DNA of 64,000 nucleotides from Rhodospirillaceae bacterium MC! (GCA_002632265.1 NQOV01000007.1:55583-119582); one strand, 5' to 3'; shown: positions 5,364 to 62,170, numbered from the stretch's first letter. The notes: generated by a model not told the origin, from the sequence alone. Made by a program: numbers and translations.

Positions 5364-6257
5364 TTATTTGTAAATGGTTACCAAGATACTACCTGCTAAA
5401 ATGAATCCTGTAGCGGTTAATCTTGACATGATATTTTTTTCTTTTAAAATAAATTTTGCTAAAATTACAGATATGGGAATATCCCACAAACGTAAACTAT
5501 TTACAAGAACCATATCGCCATTCATACTTTCGGCTAGCAGAATTAAAAAGTAAGAAATATAATCAGTAATCGAGGCTGTAAGCAGTCTTACGGCATTCTT
5601 TTTATAGATTATAAATAGATTCGGTATGTATCTCAACTTGCTTTTAGACGCTCCAAAGCCAATAATAAAAAACAACAACGTACAGAATAATAGGTTATAA
5701 AACAAATATGTTGACGGTGCAGGCTTGATTTCTGCTGGTACTTGCATGGCACGAGCGTCGGCGATGAAGTAGATTACAGATCCCAATAGAGCCATTAAAG
5801 CAAAGAGAATCGAGGATTTATTTTCCTTTCTAAATGATCCCTTTTTAATGACTGTCCAACCGTTATATATTACGATTACACCGAAGATAATTAAGGCTAT
5901 TCCAATTAAAAAGTATGGTTTGTATGTGGTATCCCACAAGATATAATTTACAAAAGCAATCAAAAATGGCGATGATCTAAATATGGGAAAATACACCGAG
6001 ATATCGCCCTTTTTCAAGGCAAAAGCAATCCCTGCATAATACAATAAGTTACCAAATGCACTTAGGATACAGTAATAAAATGTCAAATCTGCCATTTGCC
6101 AACTTGATTGAGTTATAAGGGTTTGAATTCCTGCAATGGGGACCCAACCTGCAACCGCCAATAAATATAAATCATAACGTGGCTCTTTTCCCTTTAAGAC
6201 AAGATCTCTTAAGGGATGAAAGATAGCTGATAATAATGCGTAAATAGTAACAATCAT
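5364..6257 (-). CDS. Polytopic inner-membrane protein, EamA/DMT-like, ~10 TM.
   Basis: 297 aa that are almost entirely hydrophobic helices. A two-repeat architecture is suggested. No catalytic motif was recognised. Confidence 0.3.
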   Translation of the reverse strand: MIVTIYALLSAIFHPLRDLVLKGKEPRYDLYLLAVAGWVPIAGIQTLITQSSWQMADLTFYYCILSAFGNLLYYAGIAFALKKGDISVYFPIFRSSPFLIAFVNYILWDTTYKPYFLIGIALIIFGVIVIYNGWTVIKKGSFRKENKSSILFALMALLGSVIYFIADARAMQVPAEIKPAPSTYLFYNLLFCTLLFFIIGFGASKSKLRYIPNLFIIYKKNAVRLLTASITDYISYFLILLAESMNGDMVLVNSLRLWDIPISVILAKFILKEKNIMSRLTATGFILAGSILVTIYK

Positions 6258-6275
6258 GCGTAAATTTTCTCCAAC

Positions 6276-6749
6276 TTAATCCAGTTTAAATTCTTTAGAT
6301 ATAAACTCAATCATTGTTTTAGCAAATAATTGAGTGGTATCATTTTGTTTATTGTTCGTGTTCATTTGGACGATAGTATTAAGCACTCTTTGACGAATCA
6401 ACGAGCTACTAATCCCTTGAGTACGTGGGAAAATTTTTAGTTTATCTTTCGGCACATCATTCACATTATCATCTCCATGGACTAGAAGATCAATGTTGTG
6501 TTTAATTAGGAAATCATTGTCGACCAACCAGTCAGTAGGCACTACTTCATCCACATATCTTATGGCGTAAAGGATTTCCGCTCGTTGATCATAGGTAAGT
6601 TCTGGCGTGTATCCCTTAGAACCTTCGACAGCGTCATCACGAGATAGGGCAATAATCACAGTACCACCCAACTCTTTAGCTTTTTTCATTAATCTAACAT
6701 GCCCATGATGTAAAATTGTAGCTGACATATCAACCATGATTCTTTGCAT
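6276..6749 (-). CDS. tagD: Glycerol-3-phosphate cytidylyltransferase (CDP-glycerol synthesis).
   Basis: The HxGH nucleotidyltransferase motif (TILHHGHVRLMKKAKELG) and RYVDEVV are collinear with B. subtilis TagD (~130 aa core). Confidence 0.8.
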   Translation of the reverse strand: MQRIMVDMSATILHHGHVRLMKKAKELGGTVIIALSRDDAVEGSKGYTPELTYDQRAEILYAIRYVDEVVPTDWLVDNDFLIKHNIDLLVHGDDNVNDVPKDKLKIFPRTQGISSSLIRQRVLNTIVQMNTNNKQNDTTQLFAKTMIEFISKEFKLD

Positions 6750-8238: not shown

Positions 8239-8554
8239 AATCTTTACCCCTATCCCTATTATATTCCACTTAACTTTATACTAATTTTTTATTTGTTGTT
8301 CTTGATACTGTTTTTATATTCCATATTATCTATAACATATTATCTATGAGCTATGAATTATTTTATATTCATTTAATATGATATCATAAAAAAAACAATA
8401 GTAAAACAAAAATATTTTATATTACTATAAAAAATAAAAAAGAGAAGAGTAAATATAATTACTCTTCTCTTTTTATTAACTTTAACAATCACTTATCACA
8501 GTCATTAAAAATATCGTACAAGATTTTTAATGGGGGCGAAAATCTATATTATAA

Positions 8555-10327
8555 CTACAGATCCGAAACTTTTGCTAAGAAATCATTAATTTCTTTTTCT
8601 AAGTTTTGTGTACTGTGCATGATATTACTTGAGCTTGTTTCCATTTCTTTGGCTAAAGTATTGTTATCAGTTAACTTACCGTCAATGGTTGTAATATTGT
8701 TGGTAATTTTAGATGATTTATTATTCGCCTCATCTAGATTCTTTGTTACATCGGCAATTGTTACCGCTTGTTCTTCAATGGCCGCAGCTGCACTGTTAAA
8801 GCGATCGGCAGACGATCCCAACTCATCCAAGACAAAGTTCACTGCCTCGGTAGCCTCTTTTGTTACGTTCTGTACTGTATCGATTTGAGTGGTAATATTC
8901 TCGGTAGCTTTGGCAGTTTGTGCTGCTAGATTCTTAACTTCCGACGCCACCACAGCAAACCCTTTACCAGCCTCACCTGCACGAGCGGCCTCAATGGTTG
9001 CATTTAAAGCAAGCAAGTTAGTTTGATCGGCGATATCGTTAATCAGTTGAGCAACTTCGGAAATTTTATCCACAGATGTAACCAAGTTATTAATGGTATT
9101 CACCGCTTTTTCCCCTTGTGTTACACTTACAGAGTTACGTTTTGCCCCTTGGTTAATACTCGCACTAATTTCCACAATAGATTCATTTAACTGTTCGGCA
9201 GCTGCTGAAATGTGTGATAAATCTTCTGACGCCTCGGTAGAGAGTGTTTTTACAGATTGAGAGAATTCCAAACTTGCAACGATACCCACTCCTGAACTGG
9301 TAGATTTTTCATTAATATCAGTAATATTTGTATTCACCTTAGATAAAATAGTCCCGATACTATTTTTAAAGTCTGCAATATATACCTGTTGTTTTTTCGT
9401 AACTTCTTCGGCACGTTTTTGGTTTTCTTTAATTTTGATGTTATTGGCATCACTTTCTTTCATTTTATCTCTAAAGTCCATTAAACTTGCACTCATAGAT
9501 CCAAAGGCTGTGCCTGCTTTATAAACAGGAATAACCACATTAGGCTCACGATTAACTAAAGAGTATAAGGTGTTATTAATTGTTTTAATATTCTTGATCA
9601 TACCTAGGAAAATAGACGGAATAATATAAATTACAGTAACTAGAATTAAAATTAGATTAACTATAATTAGGATTAAGTTATCCATTAACACTCTATATAA
9701 TAGGGTACTAACTGGAGTTACAAGCTTAGAGGCACAAATAGTCCAATGTAACACAGGAGTACGTTTTGAGTAACCCACTAAATTTTTAAAAGTTCCGTTT
9801 TGATCTTTCCAGCTATAATAAATAGCCTGACCATTTTTATTTTTAATGGCATTATCAACGAATTGTTTGTGAGATTTTTGTAAGTTAAAGCCTTTAGCTA
9901 AACCATCAGGAGCGATGGCCGCAATTTTCACATCATCGGTTAAGGCGAAAGCGTAGCTACCTGTTTTATCATTAAAGATATAACCTGATCCGAATGTGGC
10001 ATTTTTCATAATGGCGTTAGCTCTTTTTATACCCTCTTCTTGTGAAATTTTCACATAAACTCTATCTGAACCATTACCGTTTGGTCCGATCTTTTTACCG
10101 TATTTTTTGGCTTGGTCTGGATCGTAAACGATGTCAACGTAATGCCCTTTCATATCTTGTTCCACTTGATAGATTTGAGCTGAAATTACTTCCACAACAT
10201 CTTTTAGGGAATCATGATCAGCCTTTTGCGAATCCGTAGCAGCAATACGAATAGATATTAAGACTGTTATCGCTAATATTAGAATGATAACAGTTAATAC
10301 AATAATTAAATAATTGCGTAATTTCAT
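8555..10327 (-). CDS. Methyl-accepting chemotaxis protein with a periplasmic single-Cache (sCache_2-like) sensor domain.
   Basis: N-terminal TM, a Cache-like periplasmic domain, a second TM, and the conserved MCP signalling motif ([39 protein letters not shown]). The RBS is aaggaag. Confidence 0.85.
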
Positions 10328-10578
10328 GACGTTTCTTCCTTAGGTTATTTCAAAGCATTTGAATTAAATATTATTTTGATAATGGATTGTACTACATTTT
10401 TTTCCATAATACAATAGTTTTTTAATTATAATTTAATTTTTAACACTAAATAGAAGAAAATTCGGCAAAAAAATAGCTCTAAACATCTAATAATCAGATA
10501 CTTAGAGCATTTAAATTTACTTGTGAATTCATTCATTAACTAATCTTAGAATTTACTTAATGTAAGAAATCCTTAACT

Positions 10579-11184
10579 TTAGTTACTTATCTTAGCGGTA
10601 CAAATTGTCCAATGTAGTATTGGGGTACGTTTTGAGAAACCCACTAAATGTACAGAGTTTCCGTTTGGAGTTTTCCATTGATAATAAATAACCCCACCAT
10701 CTTTATTTTGTTTAGCATTATCAACGAATTGTTGATGAGAGGGTTGTAAGTTATAGCCTTTAGTTAAACCATCAGGAGTATCCGCTGCAATTTTCGCGTC
10801 ATCGGTTAAGGCGAAAACGTAGCTACCGCCCTTTTTATCATCAAAGGTATAACCTGATCCGAATGTGGCATTTTTCATGATGGCGTTGGCTCTTGCAAGC
10901 CCCTCTTCTTGTGAAATTTTCACATAAACTTTTTCCGTGGCAACACCACCAGCTCCGACGGTTTTACCATATTTTTGGGCTTGCTCTCTATCATAAACCT
11001 TAGTAACGTAATGCCCTTTCATATCTTGTTCTACTCCATATATTTGAGCTGAAACTAATTCCACAAGATTCTTTACGGAATCCGCATCATTTTTTTTCGA
11101 AAGTTTTGGCAAATACGAACACGAACAGATAGCAACACTAATTATAGCTAAAAATACATAACGTAAATATCTTTTTAATATCAT
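10579..11184 (-). CDS. Standalone Cache-domain lipoprotein/periplasmic protein, a paralog of the MCP sensor domain.
   Basis: Residues ~55-200 are ~75% identical to MCP residues 40-200 ([17 protein letters not shown]… KISQEEG(L/I)(A/K)[15 protein letters not shown]…). An aaggaga RBS precedes the internal ATG (MILKRYLRYVFLAIISVAICSC signal), so the start is set at 11184. Confidence 0.6.
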   Translation of the reverse strand: MILKRYLRYVFLAIISVAICSCSYLPKLSKKNDADSVKNLVELVSAQIYGVEQDMKGHYVTKVYDREQAQKYGKTVGAGGVATEKVYVKISQEEGLARANAIMKNATFGSGYTFDDKKGGSYVFALTDDAKIAADTPDGLTKGYNLQPSHQQFVDNAKQNKDGGVIYYQWKTPNGNSVHLVGFSKRTPILHWTICTAKISN

Positions 11185-11341
11185 TTGATTTCTCCTTAAA
11201 TTGTTTAGATAATGGATTGTAATACATTTTTCCCCATAATGCAATAATTTTTAAGAAACTAAAAAAAAACTCTAAACATCTATTATATTAGATGTTTAGA
11301 GTTTTAAACTTTACTAGTGAATTAGTTAGGAAATTATTAAC

Positions 11342-13396: not shown

Positions 13397-13462
13397 GATA
13401 TTAATATGAAAAAGCTCTCTAGAGTAGATGAAAAATCACTATTCTAGAGAGCTTTTTTATAT
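13397..13462 (-). terminator. Bidirectional rho-independent terminator downstream of the aldehyde dehydrogenase gene.
   Basis: An 11-bp perfect stem (gctctctagag … ctctagagagc) is flanked by an A-run 5' and a T6 run 3' on the plus strand. Confidence 0.45.
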
Positions 13463-13527
13463 TAAATTTAGATAAGATTCTAGCTTTAGAGTCATATTTT
13501 GAATATAACTCCAAGCTAGATAAAATC

Positions 13528-14970
13528 CTAGTCGTAATTAACGTAGAAGATTTTCTTTTCTAAGTATTGTTCGAAACCGTATTTACCGTCTTCGCCACCT
13601 GTACCACTTAGCTTATAGCCGTTATGGAAACCTTGGTGTTGTTCGCCATGGCCACGGTTTACATATATTTCGCCTGATTCTAGTTCTCTAACCAGAGCAT
13701 TAATGTATCGCATGTTTTGAGTGAAGATCATTACTGATAAGCCGTAATCACTATCATTGGCATAGCGGATTACTTCTTCGAAAGTATCAAATTTAATCAC
13801 AGGTAAGATCGGCCCGAATGATTCATCGTGGACGATGTTCATTGATTGGGTTACGTCTGTTAGAATTGTAGGTTCGAACCAGAAACCTTTTTCAAATTCT
13901 CCGCCTGTTAAACGATTACCACCGCAAGCAACGGTTGCACCGTCTTTTTTAGCGGTTGCCACAAGTTCTTCCATATGTTCCAGTTCTTTAGCATTGACTT
14001 TAGGACCCATATCCGAATCCGCATTCATTGGATTACCAACTTTAATGCCTTTAACTTTTTTCATGAATATTTCCATGAATTTATCATAGATAGAACTATG
14101 AACATACATGCGTTCGTTACAAGTACATACTTGACCACAGTTATCGAAACGAGCATGCAGAGCAGATTCAGCAGCTTTTTCCAATTCCGCATCTTCCATT
14201 ACGATAAACGGAGCTTTACCGCCTAATTCCAATTGTACATGTGCCATATTGTTAGCTGACGCTCTAATAATCGCCTGACCAACTGGGGTACTACCTGTCA
14301 TTGTTACCATATTTGTTAAGGGATGTTCAACCAGTGCATTACCTAGGTTAGATCCGCCACCTGTTACAATATTCAGAACACCTGCAGGAAGTCCTGCTTT
14401 TTCCGCTAAATAGCCTAGTTCTAAAGTAGCCAGTGGAGTTTCAGAAGTTGGTTTGATTACGATAGTATTCCCTGCCACTAAAGCAGGCCCTAGCTTTCTT
14501 CCTGCCAACGCCAAAGGGAAATTCCATGCTGTAATTGCCACAACCACACCACGAGGAATCTTGTGAATGTGTATTTGTTCGTTTTCGTTATCCGATTGAA
14601 CGATATCGCCGTCCATTTGTCTAGCCCAATCACAAGCATACTCGATAAATGTGCTTGTTGCTTCCACTTCACCAAATGCTACTTTTAAAAGTTTACCTTG
14701 TTCTCTCACAAGCAATTCCGCTAGACGCTGTTTGTCTTCTCTGATAAGACTTGCTAATTTACGTAAAATATCTGCACGTTTTTTAGCGGGCGTTTTCGAC
14801 CATTCTCGTTGAGCTTTTTTAGCAATGGCAAGAGCTGGTTGAGCGTCTTGCTCGTCGCCGTCTTGAATTTCTGCTAAAACTTCTTCGGTTGAAGGACTGA
14901 TTACCTGTGTGGTTTTGCCGTTTTTAGCATTAATCCACTGACCACCCACATACATTTGATACTTTTTCAT
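13528..14970 (-). CDS. aldA: NAD-dependent aldehyde dehydrogenase (lactaldehyde dehydrogenase AldA-like).
   Basis: ALDH signatures ELGGKAP and FDNCGQVCTCNERMYVH. The N-terminus YVGGQWINA is typical of AldA-type enzymes. The RBS is aggag. Confidence 0.8.
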   Translation of the reverse strand: MKKYQMYVGGQWINAKNGKTTQVISPSTEEVLAEIQDGDEQDAQPALAIAKKAQREWSKTPAKKRADILRKLASLIREDKQRLAELLVREQGKLLKVAFGEVEATSTFIEYACDWARQMDGDIVQSDNENEQIHIHKIPRGVVVAITAWNFPLALAGRKLGPALVAGNTIVIKPTSETPLATLELGYLAEKAGLPAGVLNIVTGGGSNLGNALVEHPLTNMVTMTGSTPVGQAIIRASANNMAHVQLELGGKAPFIVMEDAELEKAAESALHARFDNCGQVCTCNERMYVHSSIYDKFMEIFMKKVKGIKVGNPMNADSDMGPKVNAKELEHMEELVATAKKDGATVACGGNRLTGGEFEKGFWFEPTILTDVTQSMNIVHDESFGPILPVIKFDTFEEVIRYANDSDYGLSVMIFTQNMRYINALVRELESGEIYVNRGHGEQHQGFHNGYKLSGTGGEDGKYGFEQYLEKKIFYVNYD

Positions 14971-15013
14971 TGTTCATACTCCTAAATAGTATTTGTAATT
15001 AATATTAATGAAA

Positions 15014-15118
15014 GGGGAATGAAAAAGTGCTTAGACAGTGTTCTTAAGATATGCGACCTGCAACTTACACGTTTACATAAGCATGGCTTAAGGACATTGA
15101 ATGAGTTCTTTTTCACAC
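15014..15118. repeat. Copy of a ~100-bp palindromic intergenic element (family B: gaaaaagtgct…cttaag…catggcttaaggac…gagttctttttcac).
   Basis: It shares terminal inverted repeats and internal cttaag/catggcttaagg modules with the elements at 19047..19148 and 21466..21556. Confidence 0.6.
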
Positions 15119-15126
15119 CACTTTAA

Positions 15127-16206
15127 TTATTTATTTTTATTTTTAAACATGCCAGGATCTCTCAATCTTTGGCGTTTAAGTTTGTAGCGACAAATATAAT
15201 TCCAGTTATAACTTACATCATATTTATGACATATACCCCATTCTGATAAACCTGGTGCATCATGTTCTTTTTCATCTCTTAAGATACCTAAAGCTTCAGG
15301 TGCTCCTTTGATGTGAGACATAATCTCGAAGTTTTCGCCGTCTTTAGCCCATTGAACGGTATTTTTTTCTGGTCCATCTGTAGTAAGTAACGCACCGATA
15401 CCACCATTATAATGCCATACGGCTACTTCATGCCCACTATTTGAAATTGGGTTTAGTTCTGATTTCACATATGGTCCAAGAATATTTTCGGCAATTGCTA
15501 CACCGTGTTTAATTTCACGTCCGCCGAAGTTCATTTCTTCGCCCATGGTTTCGCCTTTATAATATAAATAGAATTTATTTTTAAAGAACATCAAGCAAGG
15601 ATCATGAACCTTATGACTATCAAAACTTCCTTTTGATTTAACATAGAATCTATTATCTTCCTCGCCGTCCCATTCGCCATCACGAGAGGCTTGTACGATA
15701 GGAGCGTCCGACTTTGTCCACGGACCGAAAGGACTATCAGAATAAGCAATGGCAATATCTTCATACTGGCGGTTAAGATAAGGATACTGCACAGTCTGAT
15801 AAACTAGATAATATTTACCGTCATGAGCTAACACTTCAGGAGTGAAACAAGCACGATCATCGTATCGCCCTTCTTCGCCACGTTCGATAGCTACGCCTTC
15901 TTCTTTCCATGTAATACCGTCTTTAGATGTGCCGTGCCATACTTCTGTAAGATCCCATGGGAATACTTTTTCTGCCTTATTGGTAGATCCAAAACCTACA
16001 GTTTTCCCTGTACCTTTTGTATACCAACAATGATATACGCCATCAACTATAATAACAGCAGTGGGATCACGTCTAATTACCCCTTCTTCATAGGCAAAAT
16101 CGCCTTTTAAATCTGTAACTTCGAATTGAATGAAATAATCTTCATTTTTTGTATCATAGCCACGTTCTATAGCTCTTTGTGATGCTAAACTTAATTTTTT
16201 AGACAT
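15127..16206 (-). CDS. Glycoside hydrolase, 5-bladed beta-propeller type (GH43/GH130-like).
   Basis: An RDPTAV motif near the N-terminus and a propeller-like repeat organisation. The start is set at the second ATG, which has a ggaga RBS. The family assignment is tentative. Confidence 0.45.
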
Positions 16207-16695
16207 TTTGATTTTCTCCATATTTTAATAATAATATACTGATCTCTTTATGCGATTTATTTTAGCAAGCTTTTATAAAACTTCAATAAATACATCTTGA
16301 CCCTACATACAATAATAAGTTAATTTTATTTGCTACACAAGAAATATAACGCTTTCAATTAACCTTTAGGTTAATCATTAATATAAGATCATGTTTTTAC
16401 TAGGAAATTTCCGTATAACTAATTTTAATTATAGCTAAAAATAAGAGATTTAACCTCAATATGACCCCTTAATTATGGATATTTCCGAAGAATTCGTACT
16501 TTTTATGAATAAAAGCACCTATTTTCCCATATAATTCTTAAAAATATGAAGATTTCTCTCCATACTTTAAAGAAAATAACATTATATTTCAAACATTTAC
16601 TCCTTTAGTTAGTATTTTGGTTTAACTAAAGGAGATGTATACAATATTGAGTTAAAAAAAATACTCAATATTCTAATTGTGAGCCATAGCAGATT

Positions 16696-17778
16696 CTAAA
16701 TAAGCTCGGCGGTTGGATGTGCCTTACTCATTTGCGACCACCATTTATCTCGTGTGCCTTTTTTCAAGATAATGATCAAAGAACCACCAAAGCCTCCACC
16801 TGTTTGACGAGCAGATAAAGCTCCGAATTTCATAGCGTCTTTTACCATTGCGTCGGTTTCTGGGATTGTGATTTCATAATCTACCTTTTGCGATTCATGG
16901 CTTGCTAGCATTAGTTGGGATAGGGCTTGGATATCGTCATTTTTCAAAGCGTCTACGGCACTAATTACTCGATAATTTTCAGTTACAATATGACGGGCTC
17001 TTTTTTGTTCTAGCTCTGGCAGTTTTTCAATGCGTGGAAGATCTTTCATTGTTAGATCTCGTAAGCTTTCCACATTTAGCATTTTACAAGCACTTGCACA
17101 TTGTGCTACTCGTTTTGCATATTCGCCGTCTACTAAAGCGTGGGTAATTCCTGATTTCATTACTAGCCATTCGTAATCTTCATTTAAATGGACATTCACA
17201 TAATCAAGAGTTTTACAATCTAAGAACACGCCATAATTTTGTTTACCAACAGAAGAGGCGAATTGATCCATGATACCGCAAGGCATGCCCACATATTCGT
17301 TTTCTGCTTGTCGTGCTAGAATGGCAATATCCACATCTGATATATCAGTAAGATTCAATAATTTTACGATACCTCGAATGGTTACCACTTCCAACGCTGC
17401 CGAAGAAGAAACCCCTGCTCCTGTTGGCACGTTACTATCTACAATGATCTTTAATGACGGGATTTGTAAATCATATTTCTTGGCAACCACTTGGATACTA
17501 CCAATGATGTAATCTGTCCAATGATTTTTTTTCTCTTCGAAAATTTTACGTTCTGTTACTTCTTCAGGGAACATAGTAGACGCTAAGGTTAAGATGGCAT
17601 CTTTACCTACTGGATTATCATCATCCTGTAGAATGGAAAGATTTACAGTATGTTTTAAAGGAAAGGGGAAAACAAAACCATTATTATAATCCGTATGCTC
17701 TCCGATCAAGTTTGCACGCCCTGGAGCGGAAACTTGAATACATTTATCACTCTTAAATTGTTCTTGAAAATTCATCAT
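16696..17778 (-). CDS. galK: Galactokinase (GHMP kinase).
   Basis: APGRANLIGEHTDYNNGFVFP is the classic galactokinase signature. The GHMP ATP motif is PTGAGVSSSAA. Confidence 0.8.
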   Translation of the reverse strand: MMNFQEQFKSDKCIQVSAPGRANLIGEHTDYNNGFVFPFPLKHTVNLSILQDDDNPVGKDAILTLASTMFPEEVTERKIFEEKKNHWTDYIIGSIQVVAKKYDLQIPSLKIIVDSNVPTGAGVSSSAALEVVTIRGIVKLLNLTDISDVDIAILARQAENEYVGMPCGIMDQFASSVGKQNYGVFLDCKTLDYVNVHLNEDYEWLVMKSGITHALVDGEYAKRVAQCASACKMLNVESLRDLTMKDLPRIEKLPELEQKRARHIVTENYRVISAVDALKNDDIQALSQLMLASHESQKVDYEITIPETDAMVKDAMKFGALSARQTGGGFGGSLIIILKKGTRDKWWSQMSKAHPTAELI

Positions 17779-17914
17779 TATTTTATACTCCTAGTATTTT
17801 TGTATTGGATGTTTGTTAAGTGTTATATGTTTAGAAATATAGAAAGTAGTTTAACATTATACAATGTGTATATCAAACTACTTTCATGTTATTTTATACT
17901 CTCTAATGAGTGCT

Positions 17915-18967
17915 TTATACTTCTCTTAGACGTTTTGCAACATCTTCAGGAAGAATATCAGCTAAGAATACGCCTGTACCTTGTTCACATCCTGCTAAGA
18001 ACTTCAATTTATTAGCGTCTCTTTTAAACGGTAAGAATTGAGCGTTATAATAGAATGATTTTTCATCGCCTTTCGGAGAAGAATATTGAAGCATTACATA
18101 AGGCATTGTGTCATCGAAAATTGCGTCGTATCTTCTGATAACTCTTCCTAGTAGTTCGGCGTAATCAGGGATTTGGCTTGGTTGGATTTCCCATAATCCT
18201 GCCATGCGTTTTTTGGGAACTATCCAACTTTCAAAAGGAAAGCGTGCAAATGGCGGAACGATTTGGGCGAAGTGTTCGCTCTCGTCAACAACCAATTCAG
18301 GATTGTTTAAAATATCGCCTATAAGATTAGCGGTGCGGAATGTTTTCGCCATGTTTTGGACGTAAGTTGGAACATGCTCAAATGAATATATTTGACCGTG
18401 CGGATGTGGTAAGGTTACTCCTACCGCCTCGCCACGATTCTCAAAAGGCATAACGAATTTGATTTGGTCTCTTGATAATAGATCATTATATCTATGAATC
18501 CATGCTTCCACTAGAGTTTCACGACGAGAGTTTGGCATTTTGCCGAGATTTCCTGTGTGATCGCTTGAATATACTACAACTTCACATCTTCCTAAGGCTG
18601 GCGAATATTCGAAATCATCGGGAAGATTCTTTTTAGCGTCCAAATGCAATCCTGCGAAACGATTCTCAAACACGGCCACTTCGAAGTTTGCGAATGGTAC
18701 TTCGCCTTTATATCCGTCTTCAGGCACTGCACATAGTGGACAGTATTCTTTCGGTGGATTAAATGTGCGGTCTTGTCTACTTGGAGAATATACCACCCAT
18801 TCAGAAGTAAACGGATTCCAACGTTTATGAGGCTGTGGCTTGGTAGTTAATGGTGGCATATCGTTGGTTGGTTTTAAAGTATGCTCTTCTGTACCGAATA
18901 AAAATAGGTCTCTACCGTCTTCCTTTTCGTGGTGTCTAATTTTCGCTTTATGTGCAAATTGTTTCAT
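17915..18967 (-). CDS. galT: Galactose-1-phosphate uridylyltransferase (HIT family).
   Basis: CPLCAV zinc motif and HPHGQIY active-site motif. The start is moved to the internal ATG (MKQFAH…), which has an aaggaa RBS. Confidence 0.85.
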   Translation of the reverse strand: MKQFAHKAKIRHHEKEDGRDLFLFGTEEHTLKPTNDMPPLTTKPQPHKRWNPFTSEWVVYSPSRQDRTFNPPKEYCPLCAVPEDGYKGEVPFANFEVAVFENRFAGLHLDAKKNLPDDFEYSPALGRCEVVVYSSDHTGNLGKMPNSRRETLVEAWIHRYNDLLSRDQIKFVMPFENRGEAVGVTLPHPHGQIYSFEHVPTYVQNMAKTFRTANLIGDILNNPELVVDESEHFAQIVPPFARFPFESWIVPKKRMAGLWEIQPSQIPDYAELLGRVIRRYDAIFDDTMPYVMLQYSSPKGDEKSFYYNAQFLPFKRDANKLKFLAGCEQGTGVFLADILPEDVAKRLREV

Positions 18968-19046
18968 GTTATATTCCTTGTTAGTTTTACATGTTATTGT
19001 TATTGTTATTATTATGAATGAGTGCTTTTTATTTCTTAAACTCAAA

Positions 19047-19148
19047 GAGTGGGAAAAAGTACTTAGTCATTGTTCTTAAGGCATGCGTGGTGTATAACAC
19101 CCATACATGAGTATGACTTAAGGGCAATGAATGAGTGCTTTTTCACGC
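19047..19148. repeat. Family B palindromic element between galT and galE, plus an extra upstream half-site (aatgagtgcttttt at 19013..19030).
   Basis: gagtgggaaaaagtactt…ttcttaaggcatgcgtggtgtata…catgagtatgacttaagggcaatgaatgagtgctttttcac. Confidence 0.6.
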
Positions 19149-19152
19149 TCTT

Positions 19153-20133
19153 TTATAGGTTCTTTTTCTTCATATGCCAATCGTAAGCCGTTTGAATGAT
19201 AGTTTCTAGATCAGAGCGTTTAGGATTAAAACCTATAACATCACGGGCTTTTTGTGAAGAGGCTACCAACTGATCGGGATCTCCTGCACGACGTGGGGCC
19301 ATGATTACATCGATTTTATTGCCGACAACTTTTTCCGCCATTTGTAGAACTTCTTTACAAGAATAGCCATTCCCTGTACCTAAATTGAAGTAGTTAGTTT
19401 CCCCACCACCTATTAGATATTCCAATGATTTAAGATGTGCTTGAGCTAGATCATCCACATGGATATAATCACGTACGCAAGTACCGTCAGGGGTATTGTA
19501 GTCATCGCCCATAAGATTAAATGAAGATTTATTAATACTTGCACGTAAAATCACAGGAATTAAATGGCTCTCTGGAGTGTGATTTTCCCCAATATCGCCA
19601 CTATCTGACGCACCTGACGCATTAAAGTATCTTAATCTTACAGATTTTAAGCCGTAAGCATTGTCATAATCATCCATGATCTGCTCCATCATCAATTTAG
19701 ACGCACCGTAAGGATTAATGGGAGCTTTTAATTGTTCTTCATCGATAGGAACACTTTTCGGTATGCCGTAAACTGCTGCGGTTGAAGAGAAAACAATTTT
19801 TTTCACATCAGCTTTGATCATAGCGTCTAGCAAATTCAAAGTGCCGACAACATTATTATGATAATACATTGACGGATTCGCCACAGATTCGCCCACTTGA
19901 ATAAACGCCGCAAAATGAACAACCGCTACAGGTTTGTATTTTTGGAAAGTTTTTGCTAAAAGTTCGCTATCGTGGATATCGCCCTTTACGAATTCGCCGT
20001 ATTTAGTGGCATATTCGTGGCCACTGCTTAGATTATCGTAAACTACAGGAGTAAAACCATTTTCCGAAAGCATTTTACAAGTATGACTACCAATGTAACC
20101 TGCTCCACCTGCAACTAATATATATTTTGACAT
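19153..20133 (-). CDS. galE: UDP-glucose 4-epimerase.
   Basis: N-terminus VAGGAGYIGSH, YGASK catalytic motif, 326 aa. The RBS is aagga. Confidence 0.9.
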   Translation of the reverse strand: MSKYILVAGGAGYIGSHTCKMLSENGFTPVVYDNLSSGHEYATKYGEFVKGDIHDSELLAKTFQKYKPVAVVHFAAFIQVGESVANPSMYYHNNVVGTLNLLDAMIKADVKKIVFSSTAAVYGIPKSVPIDEEQLKAPINPYGASKLMMEQIMDDYDNAYGLKSVRLRYFNASGASDSGDIGENHTPESHLIPVILRASINKSSFNLMGDDYNTPDGTCVRDYIHVDDLAQAHLKSLEYLIGGGETNYFNLGTGNGYSCKEVLQMAEKVVGNKIDVIMAPRRAGDPDQLVASSQKARDVIGFNPKRSDLETIIQTAYDWHMKKKNL

Positions 20134-20411
20134 TAATTAAGATCCTTTAAAGTTAAGTACTAAAATGAAGTACTGAAATTAAGTATTGAAATTACAATAT
20201 TTTTCATGGAATATTTTTTTGAATTTTTATCCCAACAAGTAAATAATATCTCATATGAGAGATTAAAGCAAGATATTTTATTGCAAAAAACATCAAGATA
20301 TGTTATTTTTATACAAGAAAATAAAAAAGAGCGTGAAAAATGGTCTAATATGCACTTTAAAGCATGGCTAAGCCCATTTTTAAAACTCTTACGTATATAA
20401 GGAATCCGAGC

Positions 20412-21344
20412 ATGTTTAAAAACATCAGAAAGAAAGATAAATCCGATCGTAAATTTTATCATGAAGATGAAAAACAAATCAATATTATCAGACGTAAAAA
20501 CCACAGGGCATACCACTTACACACTCACGAGTTCGAAGAGATTTTACTTGTGCTTTCAGGCCATGGCGTTCATTTTCATAATAATGAGTACGATTTTCTT
20601 TTGCCTGGCTCGTGTTTTTATATTAAATCGGGGGAACGTCATTCATTTTCCAATACAAATAAGTTAAATATCATAAATATCGGCTTTTATGCCAACTATT
20701 GGAGCATACAAGAAACCACATTGGCCTCATTAATTCTTAAGTTTCAAGATTTATTAGTAAAAAACAATAGAAAGATCCATTTAACTGGACAAGTATTAAA
20801 TAAAATCGAAGAAATTATCCGCTGGCTAGAAATGGAAACCGCCATTGAACGTGAAAACAATCAGGATCAAAATAAAAATCAGAATCAGGAAAAAGAAAAC
20901 AATAACATTCTAATCACAAGCCTATTTACTCAACTGTTTTATTTAATCACAAGAACCAATGATACACAAGTCTATCATAGGGATCATTATAATAACATCA
21001 ATGACGATGTTTTTAATCTCTTAAAAATATACAAGTTTGCAAGCGATGATATTAATCAAGATAACATCAGCATAAAACAATATGCCAAAGATAACGGCAG
21101 AACATACAACACTTTTTTACGTCATTTCATCAGCATGGTAGGACTACCGCCGAAAGATGTGGAAAGCAAAATAAAACTCTACAACAGCCGAAACCTAATT
21201 CTACGCCACCCCACATGGAGCATTTCAAAAATCGCCATTCAATCAGGATTCGAAGATATCTCATACTTTTCCAAACTCTTCAAAAAAGAATTCGATCTTG
21301 CCCCTAAAAAATACGCTTTACAGAATAAGAGTAATATATCTTAA
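20412..21344 (+). CDS. AraC/XylS-family transcriptional regulator (N-terminal cupin-like sensor, C-terminal double HTH), divergent from the gal operon. It carries an N/Q/K-rich insert.
   Basis: C-terminal AraC HTH signature (…ISKIAIQSGFEDISYFSKLFKKEFDLAPKKY). The start is set at the second ATG, which has an aagga RBS. Confidence 0.7.
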   Translation: MFKNIRKKDKSDRKFYHEDEKQINIIRRKNHRAYHLHTHEFEEILLVLSGHGVHFHNNEYDFLLPGSCFYIKSGERHSFSNTNKLNIINIGFYANYWSIQETTLASLILKFQDLLVKNNRKIHLTGQVLNKIEEIIRWLEMETAIERENNQDQNKNQNQEKENNNILITSLFTQLFYLITRTNDTQVYHRDHYNNINDDVFNLLKIYKFASDDINQDNISIKQYAKDNGRTYNTFLRHFISMVGLPPKDVESKIKLYNSRNLILRHPTWSISKIAIQSGFEDISYFSKLFKKEFDLAPKKYALQNKSNIS

Positions 21345-21408
21345 TATCTGTTATTGTAATATTTTAATACTTGTGATCTAGCAAAAAAATATCACAACCT
21401 ATATGACG

Positions 21409-21466
21409 AATACTAAACCTAAGGGGTGGGAAACCTAAGGGGTGGGAAACCTAAGGAGTGGGAAAA
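21409..21466. repeat. Three tandem 16-bp units (aaacctaaggggtggg) abutting the 5' end of a family B element.
   Basis: Direct reading: actaaacctaaggggtgggaaacctaaggggtgggaaacctaaggagtggg. Confidence 0.6.
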
Positions 21467-21556
21467 AGTACTCATCCAGCGTCCTTAAGCCATGCGTGGT
21501 GTATACACCACTACATGAGCATGGCTTAAGGACGCCAAGATGAGTGCTTTTTCACA
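21466..21556. repeat. Family B palindromic element between the AraC gene and coaBC.
   Basis: gagtgggaaaaagtactc…gcgtccttaagccatgcgtggtgtatacacc…catgagcatggcttaaggacgc…gagtgctttttcac. It contains a long internal inverted repeat. Confidence 0.6.
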
Positions 21557-21560
21557 GCCC

Positions 21561-22751
21561 TTAAAGAAGATCTATAATCTCTTGAACTATCAAGCGAGCA
21601 GTTTCTTTTTTGTTGCATTCGGTCATGGATTTACTATTGGTTGGGGTTATGAAAGTTATCTTGTTGTTATCTGATCCGATATATGATGTGTCGTTTAAGA
21701 CAATAGCGTCTAGGGATTTTCGTTGTAGTTTGCCTTTGGCGTTTTCCATGCCGTTATCACTTTCGGCAGAAAAGCCGATTATAAGTTTGTTGTTAGCGGA
21801 TCTGTCATTTGCTAAGGTTTTGATTATATCGGGATTTTTAATAAGTTCTAAAAAAACTTTATCGACCTTTTCGTCCTTTTTGATTTTGCTTTCCGAATAG
21901 TTGGCCACTCGATAATCGGATACGGCCGCACAACCGATAATAATATCGGCATTTTTGTTGAATTTTAAGGTTTCGGCTAGCATATCTTTGGCACTATAAG
22001 CACGGATAACCTTAAGATCATCAGGAATATCAACGGATACATTCCCCACAATAGCGGTAACATTTGCCCCCAAACGAGTGGCCTCTTGGGAAATTTCTAT
22101 GCCCATTCTACCGCTTGAACCGTTGGTAATATAACGGGCAGGATCAATCTTTTCTATCGTACCGCCAACAGTAATTAAAAGATTCACACCTAATAAGGGC
22201 TTATTGCTATTCCCCTTGGTATCTTCATAAAGATTTTCTATGGCGTTGATGATAGTTTCATGCTTGGGCAATCGTCCAATTCCCATTACACCGCAAGCAA
22301 GCATGCCACTTTCAGGTTCTAAAAAATTCACGTCGTAACTTGTAAGCTTTTTCATATTATCTTGATTTATGGGATTTAAATACATATTAGTATTCATTGC
22401 TGGACATATGAGCTTTAAGGAAGTGGTCGCCGAAAATATGGTAGTAAGGAAATCATCGGCAATTCCGTTAGCAACTTTACCGATGAAATTATAACTTGCA
22501 GGAGCTACAACGAAAACATCCGCCCATGTGGCAAGTTCGATATGTTCGACCTTACTATATTCTTCTTCATTCCACATATTCATATGCACATGATTTTTAC
22601 TAATGGTTTCCAAAGCTAAGGGCGAAACCATTTTGCTGGCGTTATGCGTCATTACCACACGGATATCGTGTCCGCACTTTCTAAGTTGTGAGACAAGATC
22701 CACACATTTATAACTAGCTATTCCGCCACATATTCCCAGTAATATTTTCAT
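21561..22751 (-). CDS. coaBC: Bifunctional phosphopantothenoylcysteine decarboxylase / phosphopantothenate-cysteine ligase.
   Basis: N-terminal flavoprotein motif (ILLGICGGIASYK) plus a C-terminal CoaB domain. 396 aa. Confidence 0.85.
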   Translation of the reverse strand: MKILLGICGGIASYKCVDLVSQLRKCGHDIRVVMTHNASKMVSPLALETISKNHVHMNMWNEEEYSKVEHIELATWADVFVVAPASYNFIGKVANGIADDFLTTIFSATTSLKLICPAMNTNMYLNPINQDNMKKLTSYDVNFLEPESGMLACGVMGIGRLPKHETIINAIENLYEDTKGNSNKPLLGVNLLITVGGTIEKIDPARYITNGSSGRMGIEISQEATRLGANVTAIVGNVSVDIPDDLKVIRAYSAKDMLAETLKFNKNADIIIGCAAVSDYRVANYSESKIKKDEKVDKVFLELIKNPDIIKTLANDRSANNKLIIGFSAESDNGMENAKGKLQRKSLDAIVLNDTSYIGSDNNKITFITPTNSKSMTECNKKETARLIVQEIIDLL

Positions 22752-22767: not shown

Positions 22768-23541
22768 CTATAAATTAAGTTTCGCTATGGTGCATAAGCC
22801 GTCCATTGTGAGATCTGGTATATATTCATTATCTATGGTCAAATAAGGCAGAACTATTGGGGCTTGCCCACCATTTATGATAGTTACGATATTATCTTCA
22901 TTTAACTCTTGTTTGAATTTATTAACCATGCCTTCAATTAAACAAACATAGCCAAGAACCATACCAGATTGTAAAGCGTGAGTCGTGTTTGAGCCGATGA
23001 TGTGATCGTTATATTCAAGCGGTATGGATTTCAGTTGGGCCGCCTTAGAGACTAAAGCATTAAAGGACGTTCCCAAGCCTGTAGTAATAGATCCCCCTAA
23101 GAATTCACCCTTGCCGTTTATGGTTACGATAGTTAGAGCCGTACCTAATGTTAGGATTATCGTAGGGCCTTGGAATTTTTCCCATGCACTTACGGCATTG
23201 ACGATAAGGTCTGCTCCTGTGGCTTTGGGAGTATCGGTTTTTATGGTGATATTTAAGTTAAGATCAGGGGAAACGATAAGAAATTTTTTACTGCTTAAAT
23301 ATTTCTCATGCCATAACTTTAAAATGGAAGTTAAAGCAGGAACAACACTACTTAAAACCACTTTAGATATATGATCATAGGACATATTTAAGGTTTTAAG
23401 AAAATAACTTATTTGCATGGAGTATTCGTCAGCGGTTCGCAATTCGGAAGTTCTTAAGCGAAAACTCCCCACTGGGATATTATTTAAGTCATATATGGCA
23501 AGCTTAATGTTAGTATTGCCCACATCTATATTTAATAACAT
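22768..23541 (-). CDS. coaX: Type III pantothenate kinase.
   Basis: N-terminus LLNIDVGNTNIKLAIY. 257 aa. Adjacent to coaBC. Confidence 0.8.
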   Translation of the reverse strand: MLLNIDVGNTNIKLAIYDLNNIPVGSFRLRTSELRTADEYSMQISYFLKTLNMSYDHISKVVLSSVVPALTSILKLWHEKYLSSKKFLIVSPDLNLNITIKTDTPKATGADLIVNAVSAWEKFQGPTIILTLGTALTIVTINGKGEFLGGSITTGLGTSFNALVSKAAQLKSIPLEYNDHIIGSNTTHALQSGMVLGYVCLIEGMVNKFKQELNEDNIVTIINGGQAPIVLPYLTIDNEYIPDLTMDGLCTIAKLNL

Positions 23542-24504: not shown

Positions 24505-24880
24505 TAACCCACATACATATTAGCTCATTTATCACGATCCGCAGGATTGGGAGAAATGGGATAAGATGTGCCTTATCTTAGGGCGACGTGTACTTAATAC
24601 CTACACTAACCCTAGTTTAAGGTGCAGATTAGCCCCTTTATCACGATCCGCAGGATTGGGAGAAATGGGATAAGATGTGCTTGTAAATAGGGCGACGTGT
24701 ACTAAATGCTTACACTAACCCTAGTTTAAGGTGCAGATTAGCCCCTTTATCACGATCCGCAGGATTGGGAGAAATGGGATAAGATGTGCCTTATCTTAGG
24801 GCGACGTGTACTAAATGCTTACACTAGCCCTAAGATAAGGTACATATTAGCCCATTTCTCCCAATCCTAATTAGGGTTTT
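24505..24880. repeat. Tandem array of three 109-bp units (family A) with partial flanking copies. Each unit contains internal hairpins.
   Basis: Unit starts at 24531, 24640 and 24749 (atcacgatccgcaggattgggagaaatgggataagatgtgcc…gggcgacgtgtac…aaccctagtttaaggtgcagattagcccc). The 3' flank ccatttctcccaatcct is the reverse complement of aggattgggagaaatgg. Confidence 0.8.
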
Positions 24881-29750: not shown

Positions 29751-30560
29751 TTAGTTGAGTTTTGATAGGTGGAAGTTGTAGTCGCATTGGGGGCAGAATT
29801 TGTTGTTGGGGACGTTGAAGTTTTCGCAGGAGGTGCAGGGGATGAAGTTGGGGTTGTTTTCGCATTGGCCGCAGTATTGGGCGTATTCGTTATCACTGAC
29901 ATCTTTATAATCGCAAGTGTTACATAGGTTGGGATCGCCTACGGTGGGGTGGGTGGGGTCGGTGTATTCTTCTGTGACTGTGGTTGTGGTAATTTCTTCT
30001 TCATCGTCGTAGTCGGAGCTACCGCTACCGAAGATACTGCCATGGCCGTTGTTGTTATTGCGATGTTTATTTTTTTTCTTTCTAAAGCTGAATCTGTATA
30101 TTAAATAGATAACAAGAAGCAGTAAGATAATATCAAACAAGCCAATGCCACCGCTACCGCCTGCACCACCGTAGTTACCGCCTGCACCGTAGCCATCACC
30201 ATAACCACCGCCATGATGAAATAGCGAGCTTAAGATATAGCCACCTAAAAGACCGTGCATGATTCCATAACCGTAAGAATGTCTTCTGCCGAAGAATCCG
30301 CCACGAGAGCTTCCTCTTCTTGTGGTTGTGGTGGTTGTTCTTCTCATATTACGGGGAGAAGTGCTATGTGAATTACTAAAAAAGCTTTTATTTGTGCTTG
30401 GTCTGAAGTTTGATCTTGGGATAGACGATGAGCTAGGTCTGAAATTACTCATACCGCGGGACATTCTAAAGCTACTACGAGCGTAAGTATTAATAGGAAT
30501 AGTTATCATTGATATCATAAAAATAGATATAAAAACAATTGCAATACTTTTCAATTTCAT
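29751..30560 (-). CDS. Hypothetical protein with a signal peptide, an R/S-rich then Gly/Tyr-rich segment, one TM, and a C-terminal 4xCxxC double zinc-ribbon.
   Basis: MKLKSIAIVFISIFMISMITIPINTYA signal. GGYGDGYGAGGNYGGAGGSGG. C-terminus CNTC…CGQC…CTSC…CPQC. Confidence 0.4.
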   Translation of the reverse strand: MKLKSIAIVFISIFMISMITIPINTYARSSFRMSRGMSNFRPSSSSIPRSNFRPSTNKSFFSNSHSTSPRNMRRTTTTTTRRGSSRGGFFGRRHSYGYGIMHGLLGGYILSSLFHHGGGYGDGYGAGGNYGGAGGSGGIGLFDIILLLLVIYLIYRFSFRKKKNKHRNNNNGHGSIFGSGSSDYDDEEEITTTTVTEEYTDPTHPTVGDPNLCNTCDYKDVSDNEYAQYCGQCENNPNFIPCTSCENFNVPNNKFCPQCDYNFHLSKLN

Positions 30561-30652
30561 GTTAAGTAAGTCTTTCTTTTTAATATTAAAATAGGTAAGT
30601 TATATGATATTATCACTAACTCTTATCTAAGTCAATATATTTCTTGTTTGTT

Positions 30653-31699: not shown

Positions 31700-31829
31700 T
31701 ATATCTACTTTGCTCTCTCTCGTAGTTACTTTTATTAAGAAAAATTTATATAAACTCTTGCATTTTTCTTGATTTTATTATAATATCACATATTATATAT
31801 TATTTATCTAAAGGTGTAAATTAAAATTT

Positions 31830-32786: not shown

Positions 32787-32825
32787 GAATTAATGAGAAG
32801 AATTAATGAGAAAAATTAATGAGTA
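32787..32825. repeat. Three tandem 13-bp units (gaattaatgagaa) spanning the hemC stop and the next gene's start region.
   Basis: Direct reading of 32781..32830. Confidence 0.55.
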
Positions 32826-33643: not shown

Positions 33644-33660
33644 GAATGAGAATAGCCCTT

Positions 33661-35866: not shown

Positions 35867-36017
35867 TTTTCACACCCCTTATGAAATGAAAGAATAATTT
35901 TATTATCTAGATAATATCACATTATTATCCTAATTTAAAGATAAAAAATCACTTACTTAAAATTATTAAGCAAGTGATTTTTTTATTATGGATTTTCTAC
36001 TAGTAGAAAATAATAAT

Positions 36018-38706: not shown

Positions 38707-38885
38707 AGGGGTAATGGCGTCTAGTTGCCTGTATATTCTTAATAGAATACCATAATATATGTAAAAAAACAGTTAAATAGATTGAGATCAAGATAAAACC
38801 AACCGTTTTCTATATCTATTCTTTTGGCTTTATAAGGTATAATATATGATAGATACTATATAATAAGTGCTTTTTCACGCCCCTT

Positions 38886-39920
38886 TTACATATTATCTTT
38901 TACAATAGAGATCAGGTTATTAACTTCTTGTTCTGTGGTTGTCCATGATGTTACTAGGCGGATACATGTGCCGTTTTGTTCTTCGGACCAGTCGTAAAAG
39001 TTGGCGGGGGATTCTGTGAGTGCTTTGTGGACTTTGTGGGGTAGGATGGGGAATACTTGGTTGGTGATTGTTTTTGTGAGGAATTTTATTCCTAGGTTGC
39101 TTAAGCCTTTGGTTAGTTTTTCTGCTAAGTTGTTGGAATTTTCGGCGTTTTTTTGCATGATGTTATCGAGAATGGGAATCCATTGTGCTGATAGGTATCG
39201 CATTTTAGAAGATGTTTGAGCGGTGGATTTGCAGATAACCTGCATGTGTTCATTTAACTCTTGATTAAAGACCACAATTGCCTCGGCAGACATTGCCCCA
39301 TTTTTTGTAGCTCCCAAGCTTAGAACATCCAAGCCGATTTTGTGAGTGATGTCGGCAGGTTTACAATTTAGGTTTTGGATAGCATTAAAGAATCTTGCAC
39401 CGTCCATATGGGTTTTAAGATTGTGTTCTTTTGCCAAGTTAAAGATTTCTTTAAGTTCATCAATGGAATATACAGTTCCCAGCTCGGTAGGTTGGGTAAC
39501 GGTAATGGCTTTTACTTGCGAAACATGATAGCCATGAGCGACCTTTTTAAGGCGATTTTTGAGATCATTAATATCAAATTTTGCGTTTTTACTGATAATG
39601 CTTTCCAGTTCCATACCACCAGCGAACACCTGGGGAGTGTTACATTCATCATTGGTAACGTGGGCATTATCTGTACACAATATGCGTTGCCATTGTCTTG
39701 CCATGGCGGTTAGAGAAATGGAATTCGCTGCCGTGCCTGTGGATACAAAATACACGGTGATATCATCGGCCTTTAGATCAAAATAGTTAGCGATTTTCTC
39801 TCGTGCTAATTTCGAGATTTCGTCTTCGCCGTAGGGGTTTGTGTATCCTGTATTGATTTCAGCTAGATACGTAAATATTTCAGGCACAACCGCCGATGTG
39901 TTATCGCTTTTAAATTCCAT
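38886..39920 (-). CDS. ltaE: Low-specificity L-threonine aldolase (PLP-dependent, beta-eliminating lyase family).
   Basis: N-terminus DNTSAVVPEIF…NPYGEDE, VSTGTAANS, and a Lys-containing GATKNG motif. Confidence 0.7.
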   Translation of the reverse strand: MEFKSDNTSAVVPEIFTYLAEINTGYTNPYGEDEISKLAREKIANYFDLKADDITVYFVSTGTAANSISLTAMARQWQRILCTDNAHVTNDECNTPQVFAGGMELESIISKNAKFDINDLKNRLKKVAHGYHVSQVKAITVTQPTELGTVYSIDELKEIFNLAKEHNLKTHMDGARFFNAIQNLNCKPADITHKIGLDVLSLGATKNGAMSAEAIVVFNQELNEHMQVICKSTAQTSSKMRYLSAQWIPILDNIMQKNAENSNNLAEKLTKGLSNLGIKFLTKTITNQVFPILPHKVHKALTESPANFYDWSEEQNGTCIRLVTSWTTTEQEVNNLISIVKDNM

Positions 39921-39948: not shown

Positions 39949-40293
39949 TTAATAGGTAATAGTACCTAAAGTTGTACCCGTATATAAATCAATTGATATT
40001 ATTTTCTGTTTGTGAGTGATACTATTTACACAATATAATAATACTAATTTCCTTTGGACTTGTGGCTTATCGCAGTGAAAATTCTCGCCTGCTTGAATTT
40101 CCACATTGCCGAATTTTTCCAAGTTGGTAACATTCGGCGAAAGGATATTACTTTGCACAACTTGAGAATTTTCCGTACTGTGATGTGCGGGTGCGTGTGT
40201 GGATCTTACCATGCCTATGATTAAGATAGGAATACCTAAAGCAAGCAAGGCGGACATAATATATACAGATATTTTGATATATTTTAAGTTCAT
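39949..40293 (-). CDS. Hypothetical small protein with a single N-terminal TM.
   Basis: ORF only. A hydrophobic N-terminus is followed by a His-rich linker. Confidence 0.2.
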   Translation of the reverse strand: MNLKYIKISVYIMSALLALGIPILIIGMVRSTHAPAHHSTENSQVVQSNILSPNVTNLEKFGNVEIQAGENFHCDKPQVQRKLVLLYCVNSITHKQKIISIDLYTGTTLGTITY

Positions 40294-52331: not shown

Positions 52332-52418
52332 TATTGATTTCTATTGTAATATTCTATAAAATAGTTTAAAATTTATTCTATCAGATATCAAGCAATAAAT
52401 TATATTAATGGAATAAAG

Positions 52419-52470
52419 AGTGCGAAAAAGCATTCATTTTAGCAATTTTCATTATATCACTTTTTCGCAA
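52419..52470. repeat. Short palindromic element related to the family B termini (gagtgcgaaaaag … ctttttcgcaac).
   Basis: Direct reading. It lies upstream of dusB. Confidence 0.45.
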
Positions 52471-52503
52471 CCCTTTGGAATTACAGGATAAAAAAGAATA
52501 AAA

Positions 52504-62146: not shown

Positions 62147-62170
62147 ATATATTGTGGCAGTCTTAAAATT

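Follow-up and report, generated by a model that had tools for sequence, protein, structure and literature searches.

Palindromic intergenic repeats behind stop codons of a low-GC alphaproteobacterium: a probable MITE-like family with a terminator-like hairpin

Introduction

What are palindromes of about 100 bp doing in several gene junctions of one short region? The question is raised by a 64,000-nucleotide stretch of Rhodospirillaceae bacterium MC! (GCA_002632265.1 NQOV01000007.1:55583-119582; hereafter the window, i.e. this whole stretch), in which similar palindromes occupy intergenic gaps among gal, aldA and coa genes. A first-pass annotation made from the sequence had grouped them as the second repeat family of the window (family B, beside a family A), had likened them to known palindromic repeats and had suggested that they may act as terminators or mRNA stabilisers. 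Small palindromic repeats are common genome furniture, and another family is unsurprising as such. Our analysis indicates that family B probably represents small, lineage-specific, non-coding palindromic insertion elements resembling miniature inverted-repeat transposable elements (MITEs) in an uncultured low-GC alphaproteobacterium, with a hairpin that would act as a terminator or attenuator. The family is of a known, common kind and new in sequence only; it would serve as a marker of insertion at operon junctions in an alphaproteobacterial lineage that is poorly known.

Results

Three related and polar copies

Three full copies were delimited in the window.

15006..15129, plus strand: copy 1, full; nhmmer 109.9 bits, E 3e-33; covariance model 104.1 bits
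19041..19156 (inverted repeat 19044-19153), plus strand: copy 2, full; nhmmer 116.7 bits; covariance model 112.4 bits
21452..21563, plus strand: copy 3, full, the most perfect palindrome; nhmmer 114.4 bits; covariance model 114.8 bits

On formal alignment (MAFFT) the three copies proved to be related, as had been claimed from inspection, with a mean column identity of 81% over ~115 columns and pairwise identities of 74-79%. The nhmmer profile built from them yielded E = 3e-33 to 2.5e-35 on the plus strand versus 1e-12 to 1e-18 on the minus strand, and the far stronger plus-strand values indicate that the elements are polar and that all three lie in the same orientation. Their limits, as set by the inverted repeat, are 15006-15129, 19044-19153 and 21452-21563, i.e. 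an element length of 110-124 bp; the boundaries drawn earlier were in the right places and slightly narrow, the start given for copy 3 (21466) being ~14 nt too far in. The terminal sequences are GTGGGAAAAAG and GTGAAAAAG, the terminal inverted repeat sequence is GGAGTGGGAAAAAGTAC, and the CTTAAG / CATGGCTTAAGGAC motifs, previously described as internal palindromes, were indeed found in both arms of the copies. In copy 1 the inverted repeat reaches TAAT.../...ATTA, including the stop codon of the neighbouring GH43-like gene. The sequences flanking the three copies are unrelated to one another.

A long hairpin kept during sequence drift

Each full copy folds into a single long imperfect hairpin along the whole element, with z-scores of -7.4, -9.3 and -11.5 for copies 1-3 against dinucleotide shuffles. 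Folding energies on the plus and minus strands were -42 and -30.7 kcal/mol for copy 1, -56.2 and -36 kcal/mol for copy 2, and -66.5 and -63.1 kcal/mol for copy 3. The consensus structure comprises 48 pairs with 90% of cells paired, and seven stem pairs have been altered on both sides with pairing kept, a number reached by 0/500 shuffles, with slid controls giving at most two. These two-sided changes indicate that the palindrome was conserved while its sequence drifted, and family B thus illustrates cleanly how compensatory change can keep a hairpin.

Folding also differs between the strands. The consensus hairpin has -53.9 kcal/mol on the plus strand versus -36.3 kcal/mol on the minus strand, an asymmetry that is real in energy terms; in the mRNA sense the hairpins of copies 1 and 2 are weakened by A.C mismatches, and their antisense hairpins retain G.U pairs. 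Since the asymmetry rests on G.U pairs at 10 positions versus A.C mismatches at 5, a non-significant difference (two-sided binomial P ~0.3), it is offered as a hypothesis only. In RNA the hairpin is framed by GAAAAAG...CUUUUUC, with CUUUUUC following the upper stem on both strands.

Placement directly behind stop codons

The genes around the three copies are as follows.

13528-14970, minus strand: aldA-type aldehyde dehydrogenase
15127-16221, minus strand: GH43-like
16696-17778, minus strand: galK
17915-18968, minus strand: galT (true ATG at 18968)
19153-20133, minus strand: galE
20364-21344, plus strand: AraC-family regulator
21561-22751, minus strand: coaBC
22768-23541, minus strand: type III pantothenate kinase

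All copies are intergenic, and at all three the gene calls agree with the context first described, namely tandem or convergent junctions such as galT|galE and aldA|GH. The GH43-like|aldA and galE|galT junctions are tandem on the minus strand, copy 1 lying between the GH43-like stop codon (15127-15129) and the aldA start (14970), and copy 2 between the galE stop codon (19153-19155) and the galT ATG (18968). At the convergent araC-like|coaBC junction, copy 3 is flanked by the araC-like stop (21344) and by the coaBC stop (21561-21563), which is within the terminal repeat. The right ends of the three full copies, and of a lone terminus described below, lie 0-4 nt from the TAA stop of a minus-strand gene, and in these four genes the first base of the stop codon comes 5-10 nt after the CAC conserved in the right terminus. 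Compared with their family models, GalE and CoaBC are full length, showing that the insertions left these proteins untruncated.

An element-free junction in a relative

TsaD and gene content assign the window to what is, on this comparison, a deep-branching low-GC alphaproteobacterium: its GC content is ~35%, the best named matches are Terasakiella and Rhodospirillales at ~60%, and ankyrin and chemotaxis genes are carried in it. A fragmented draft, GCA_002632305.1, carries the same DNA, 100% identical save a 43-bp indel outside the elements, and the two assemblies are identical at the family B elements. The indel itself (16335-16377) is 43 bp with the palindrome ATTAACCTTTAGGTTAAT, present in the window and absent from the otherwise identical draft contig NQOW01000034.1; it reflects either a true indel polymorphism or a difference in assembly.

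The nearest accessible relative, GCA_002995645.1, has a GalE 76% identical to that of the window and the same gene order galE-galT-galK. Its galE|galT junction reads TAA-AGAACACTAT-ATG, i.e. a 10-nt spacer versus 184 nt here, and the GalE C-terminus (...DWH.KKNL*) is conserved in both. Neither the family B profile nor the covariance model matched anything in the 15.6-kb gal locus of the relative. As judged from the two sequences, its galE|galT junction is an empty site, at a large evolutionary distance.

Family B insertions explain the unusually long galE-galT and GH43-aldA spacers together with an over-extended galT call, and the family is accordingly useful for annotation, both for the long spacers and for the galT start. 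The galT open reading frame (ORF) beginning at TTG 19045 (17915-19045) is too long, comparison with the relative placing the real start at ATG 18968 (MKQFAHK...); the relative's own galT call (5583-6683 of its locus) is too long as well and runs into galE. The promoter region between the divergent galE and araC-like genes holds 3.2 direct-repeat copies of a 13-bp unit, TTAAGTACTGAAA, at 20153-20194, a candidate operator for the AraC-family regulator.

The gal genes look foreign, their best outside matches being in Thermotogae, Firmicutes and Spirochaetes at 58%, and the genes neighbouring gal in the relative differ from those here. The clustering of the elements had been read as a possible mark of a recently remodelled sugar island, which the elements do not bear out: identities of 74-79% indicate that the copies are old, and the clustering of the three full copies within 6.5 kb is weakly non-random (P ~0.03).

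Relics and local rearrangements

Besides the full copies, three relics and a tandem array were recognised.

38861..38887, plus strand: lone right terminus, a relic; 38862-38885 matches the right end of copy 2 at 21/24; terminus hidden Markov model (HMM) E 9e-6
52414..52478, no strand assigned: internally deleted copy with both termini kept; terminus HMM E 1e-4 and 2e-3
19014..19030, plus strand: half-site ATGAATGAGTGCTTTTT, duplicating 17 nt of the right arm of copy 2 without mismatch
21415..21465, plus strand: tandem array of the 16-bp unit AAACCTAAGGGGTGGG, 3.2 copies; Tandem Repeats Finder period 16, 97% matches, score 95

The two truncated relatives suspected near 38865 and 52419 are real. 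The first adjoins the stop codon (38886-38888) of a minus-strand PLP-aldolase gene (38886-39920). In the second, 52415-52438 on the minus strand matches the 24-nt right terminus of copy 2, likewise at 21/24, and the chance expectation for such matches is 0.00 at both sites; a second, weaker terminus recovered by the terminus profile (52456-52478) identifies 52414-52478 as an internally deleted copy, of which only a ~12-bp terminal stem folds. Lying between the divergent starts of ispD (52331) and dus (52504), it indicates that family B is not restricted to gene 3′ ends. The description of the family as dispersed thus holds within the window, in the sense of three full copies in 6.5 kb and relics at 38.9 and 52.4 kb.

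The other two sites are local. The half-site, noticed earlier at 19013..19030, lies 13 nt left of copy 2, and the 16-bp tandem leader reported beside copy 3 is the outermost left terminus of that copy, triplicated. One further relic candidate, 35858-35883 (terminus HMM E 0.02), overlaps the dnaX start codon and was taken as chance.

Searches for further copies and for known families

The two termini served as a scan pattern, GAAAAAGTRCT-N58-86-AGTKCTTTTTCAC. Viral contigs gave no match, JGI metagenomes one, and 596 Gb of species-representative genomes one, in an Omnitrophota metagenome-assembled genome. Since the species-representative matches did not include the window's own copies, that collection either lacks the source genome or contains it in masked form. 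Because chance alone would give ~0.5 matches in 596 Gb if all bases were equally frequent and the similarity to family B was confined to the termini (nhmmer E 0.019; covariance model 12 bits), both matches were rejected as chance. The Omnitrophota sequence (JADHYM010000014.1 5700-5963) contains a 96-bp palindromic stretch with termini GATGAAAAAGTGCTCAT...ATGAGTGCTTTTTCACGCC, identical over 18 nt to the right end of copy 2 and nested in a larger inverted repeat, AAGGTTCCGGGCAGTGCT...AGCACTGCCCGGAACCTT; we took the match to be due to chance or to a terminator-like sequence, and the stretch may be an independent repeat element.

A blastn search of family B against plasmids and phages found nothing. 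In the window, only four tRNAs passed the Rfam gathering threshold, and relaxed thresholds added only chance matches (mir-105 at 25.7 bits, threshold 68; CrcZ at 18, threshold 95). Literature searches by accession and by terminus sequence returned nothing relevant on family B, and in six-frame translation every frame is interrupted in at least one copy.

Relation to family A

The sequence at 24519-24870, apparently the family A of the first-pass annotation, consists of a 109-bp unit in 3.1 tandem copies. Its last unit (24761-24870) forms a hairpin with 42-nt arms (-72.9 kcal/mol), whose end and the stop codon of a minus-strand M23 peptidase gene (24871) are 2 nt apart. Isolated right-end motifs of family A were seen between convergent genes at 56534-56562 and 62894-62922, and the draft assembly breaks within the array. 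The family B covariance model scores the 24761-24870 hairpin at 58.8 bits; the two families are of the same length and have similar left termini (AGGATTGGGAGAAA versus AGGAGTGGGAAAAA). The sequence similarity exceeds that of shuffles against copy 1 only (z 3.4-4.4; copies 2 and 3, z ~1.5). A common origin of the two families is possible on this likeness.

Discussion

Family B as a mobile element of a known kind

A palindrome repeated with its structure conserved, at unrelated intergenic sites, accompanied by terminus relics and by one empty junction, leads us to infer that family B is a non-autonomous mobile element, past or present. Copies would have been inserted immediately after TAA stop codons, through transposition or some similar copy-and-insert mechanism, leaving the upstream protein unchanged. 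The initial likening to REP- or MITE-like intergenic repeats is upheld by the compensatory changes, the unrelated flanks, the decayed copies and the 10-nt element-free galE|galT junction of the relative.

Several points weigh against this reading, in its mobile or its terminator part. Pfam searches of the window ORFs found no transposase or RAYT (REP-associated tyrosine transposase) gene in the 64 kb. Inspection of the sequences flanking each copy showed no consistent target-site duplication. Only copy 3 is compatible with TA/TA; copies 1 and 2 share no direct repeat at their flanks, which are AT-rich and make the test weak. The strict pattern found no further copies, which counts provided that the species-representative collection includes the source genome and masks only the window. 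The relative is distant (76% amino-acid identity), so that an element could have been lost there by deletion. On the transcript side, aldA begins 37 nt beyond copy 1 and galT 76 nt beyond copy 2, neither with an evident promoter, and stems of ~48 bp far exceed those of ordinary intrinsic terminators.

The general definition of MITEs includes a flanking target-site duplication (PMC3184786). Family B has a whole-length inverted repeat (48 consensus pairs), a size of 110-124 bp, a long hairpin and no transposase gene, and the duplication is the one feature that fails, in flanks where AT-richness weakens the test.

Among known MITEs, Correia/NEMIS of Neisseria, RUP of Streptococcus pneumoniae and ERIC/IRU of enterobacteria form long transcript hairpins. 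Like them, family B is non-coding and of ~100-150 bp, folds as one hairpin along the whole element through its terminal repeats, and occupies transcribed intergenic sites, often just 3′ of genes, with decayed copies present. It differs in sharing no sequence similarity with them, in lacking a consistent TA or other target-site duplication, and in a palindrome that runs throughout rather than as terminal repeats around a unique core; moreover, three full copies were seen, within the window, and no parent insertion sequence was identified there.

Repetitive extragenic palindromic (REP) sequences, as defined in PMC3733652 and PMC3116915, fall into superfamilies by a GTAG/CGTC tag (PMC3733652). 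REPs and REPINs are extragenic palindromes with proposed roles in termination and mRNA stabilisation (PMC3116915, PMC3733652, PMC3184786). Family B resembles them in its REPIN-like total length, its singlet remnants and the absence of a target-site duplication; it differs in being AT-rich rather than GC-rich, in forming one structure rather than two stem-loops and a spacer, and in having no RAYT in the window. GTAG/CGTC is terminal at neither end, the termini reading ...GAGTGGGAAAAAG and, on the other strand, ...GCGTGAAAAAG.

The Rickettsia palindromic elements (RPEs), ~100-150 bp in size, are palindromic repeats of alphaproteobacteria known for inserting in frame into protein genes. Palindromy, similar size and an alphaproteobacterial host are shared by family B, but its copies are all intergenic, no frame is open across them and the terminal CGTC tag is lacking, so that the earlier likening to RPEs does not hold. 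RPEs are mentioned in PMC3733652.

Alternative origins

The mobile interpretation has to be weighed against an origin within the host. Family B could comprise non-mobile cis-regulatory hairpins, i.e. enlarged terminators or attenuators, whose local spread came from duplication, template switching or gene conversion, and which were kept for tuning sugar and CoA genes. The confinement of all three full copies to 6.5 kb speaks for this, as do termini resembling native AAAAAG...CTTTTT terminator hairpins, a half-site and a triplicated terminus of the sort that local slippage or template switching would produce, and hairpin strengths that fit their context, with copy 3 strong on both strands and copies 1 and 2 weakened on the mRNA strand. 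Yet the relics are 17 and 31 kb away in unrelated contexts, one of them between divergent starts where a terminator would have no role; the copies share no flanking sequence; and family A, of the same size, has its own dispersed lone termini in the window, which is typical of mobile repeat populations. We regard a purely host origin as unlikely. Movement by a REPIN-like route is a further alternative, in which single-stranded DNA hairpins would be mobilised by a RAYT or an IS200/IS605-type HUH tyrosine transposase encoded elsewhere in the genome. The ~25-nt termini would then correspond to REP-like units, a full element to two of them in inverted arrangement, and a lone terminus to a singlet. 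A mechanism of this kind expects no target-site duplication, and none was seen; the element size is REPIN-like, singlet termini exist, the oriented copies all point the same way and the plus-strand hairpin is the more stable (consensus values and G.U versus A.C counts above). That asymmetry is non-significant, however, and neither terminus (GTGGGAAAAAG, GTGAAAAAG) carries the GTAG or CGTC tetranucleotide (criterion of PMC3733652), the palindrome is continuous over the element instead of being two REP stem-loops and a spacer, and no Y1 transposase occurs among the window ORFs, all of which makes the REPIN-like route quite unlikely in our view.

An integron origin was considered as well, with the copies as attC-like sites of a degenerate cassette array that lacks an integrase and folds as single-stranded hairpins behind cassette genes. 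Chromosomal attC arrays show just such a length (~110 bp), imperfect palindromy, position after stop codons, orientation shared with the upstream gene and mutual identity (~75-80%) as were found here. On inspection, RYYYAAC / GTTRRRY core sites were absent from the ends of both strands, and the only tyrosine recombinase of the window is XerC-like, scoring 304 bits for XerC versus 117 for integron integrase (cut-off 265) and sitting in the usual DUF484-xerC pair; the flanked galE, galT and coaBC are syntenic housekeeping or operon genes, not cassettes. On the missing core sites and the nature of the recombinase the attC identity was rejected, and we give it hardly any credence.

Possible effects of the hairpin on transcripts

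A mobile palindrome behind a stop codon would become part of the transcript of the gene upstream. There, the long hairpin with its GAAAAAG / CUUUUUC frame is arranged like a bidirectional intrinsic terminator whose stem is oversized. As in intrinsic (Rho-independent) terminators of that type, an A-tract precedes and a U-tract follows a stable hairpin downstream of stop codons; the differences are a stem of ~48 bp versus roughly 5-15 bp, a sequence repeated at several loci, and the location of two copies in operon-like junctions, where complete termination would silence the downstream gene. Native terminator-like hairpins of the window (13401-13465, 8437-8474 and 35943-35983) share the AAAAAG...CTTTTT frame, and the family B covariance model scored 13401-13467 at 21.8 bits. 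A simple terminator scanner misses family B, as it counts loops of 3-8 nt and at most 20 stem pairs.

Such a hairpin might act as a terminator or attenuator and as a barrier to 3′-to-5′ exonucleases, insulating the upstream gene (galE, GH43-like, coaBC or the aldolase) from what follows; a terminator or stabiliser role is plausible from the A5/U5 tracts that flank the hairpin and from its place right after stop codons. With aldA and galT so close downstream, copies 1 and 2 are not complete terminators unless they also supply promoters, and at these operon-like junctions readthrough would still be needed. We hypothesise that attenuation together with 3′-end protection of the upstream cistron would suit these two copies better than full termination. 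At the convergent junction of copy 3, the near-perfect hairpin could stop transcription from both sides. A promoter made by the half-site (TTAAGA-17-CATAAT, 9/12 to consensus) was considered and dropped, such matches not being enriched over shuffles.

Family A and the strand asymmetry allow a more speculative proposal, which we rate as a long shot: families A and B would be two branches of one hairpin superfamily, moved as strand-specific single-stranded hairpins and then tuned by the host, through one-sided decay, into direction-specific insulators. One-sided decay would mean G.U on one strand and A.C on the other. Copies 1 and 2 would then be leaky in the sense direction (-31 and -36 kcal/mol) and blocking in antisense (-42 and -56 kcal/mol), and copy 3, between convergent genes, would block both ways (-66 and -63 kcal/mol). 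For family B read as MITE-like insertions, the placement and orientation at stop codons, combined with a hairpin strength that depends on strand and context, provides a testable link from repeat decay to readthrough control.

Other features of the window

A low-GC islet (28-30% GC) spans 40000-44600. It encodes an ankyrin-repeat protein (40851-41993) with ten 102-nt repeats, and a two-gene module made up of an ATPase (43011-44525) matching the PD-T4-4_A anti-phage defence protein at 197 bits and a partner ORF (42035-43018). The cumulative GC skew has its minimum at ~30000-34000, beside the divergent tsaD / hemC and near dnaX, possibly marking the region of the replication origin. A 101-bp tandem duplication at 62070-62247, where the draft contig ends, contains two identical tRNA-Met(CAT) genes. 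Finally, 8555-11244 is occupied by a chemotaxis receptor gene and, behind it, a partial tandem paralogue that has the sCache domain only; segments of ~500 bp are 80% identical between the two.

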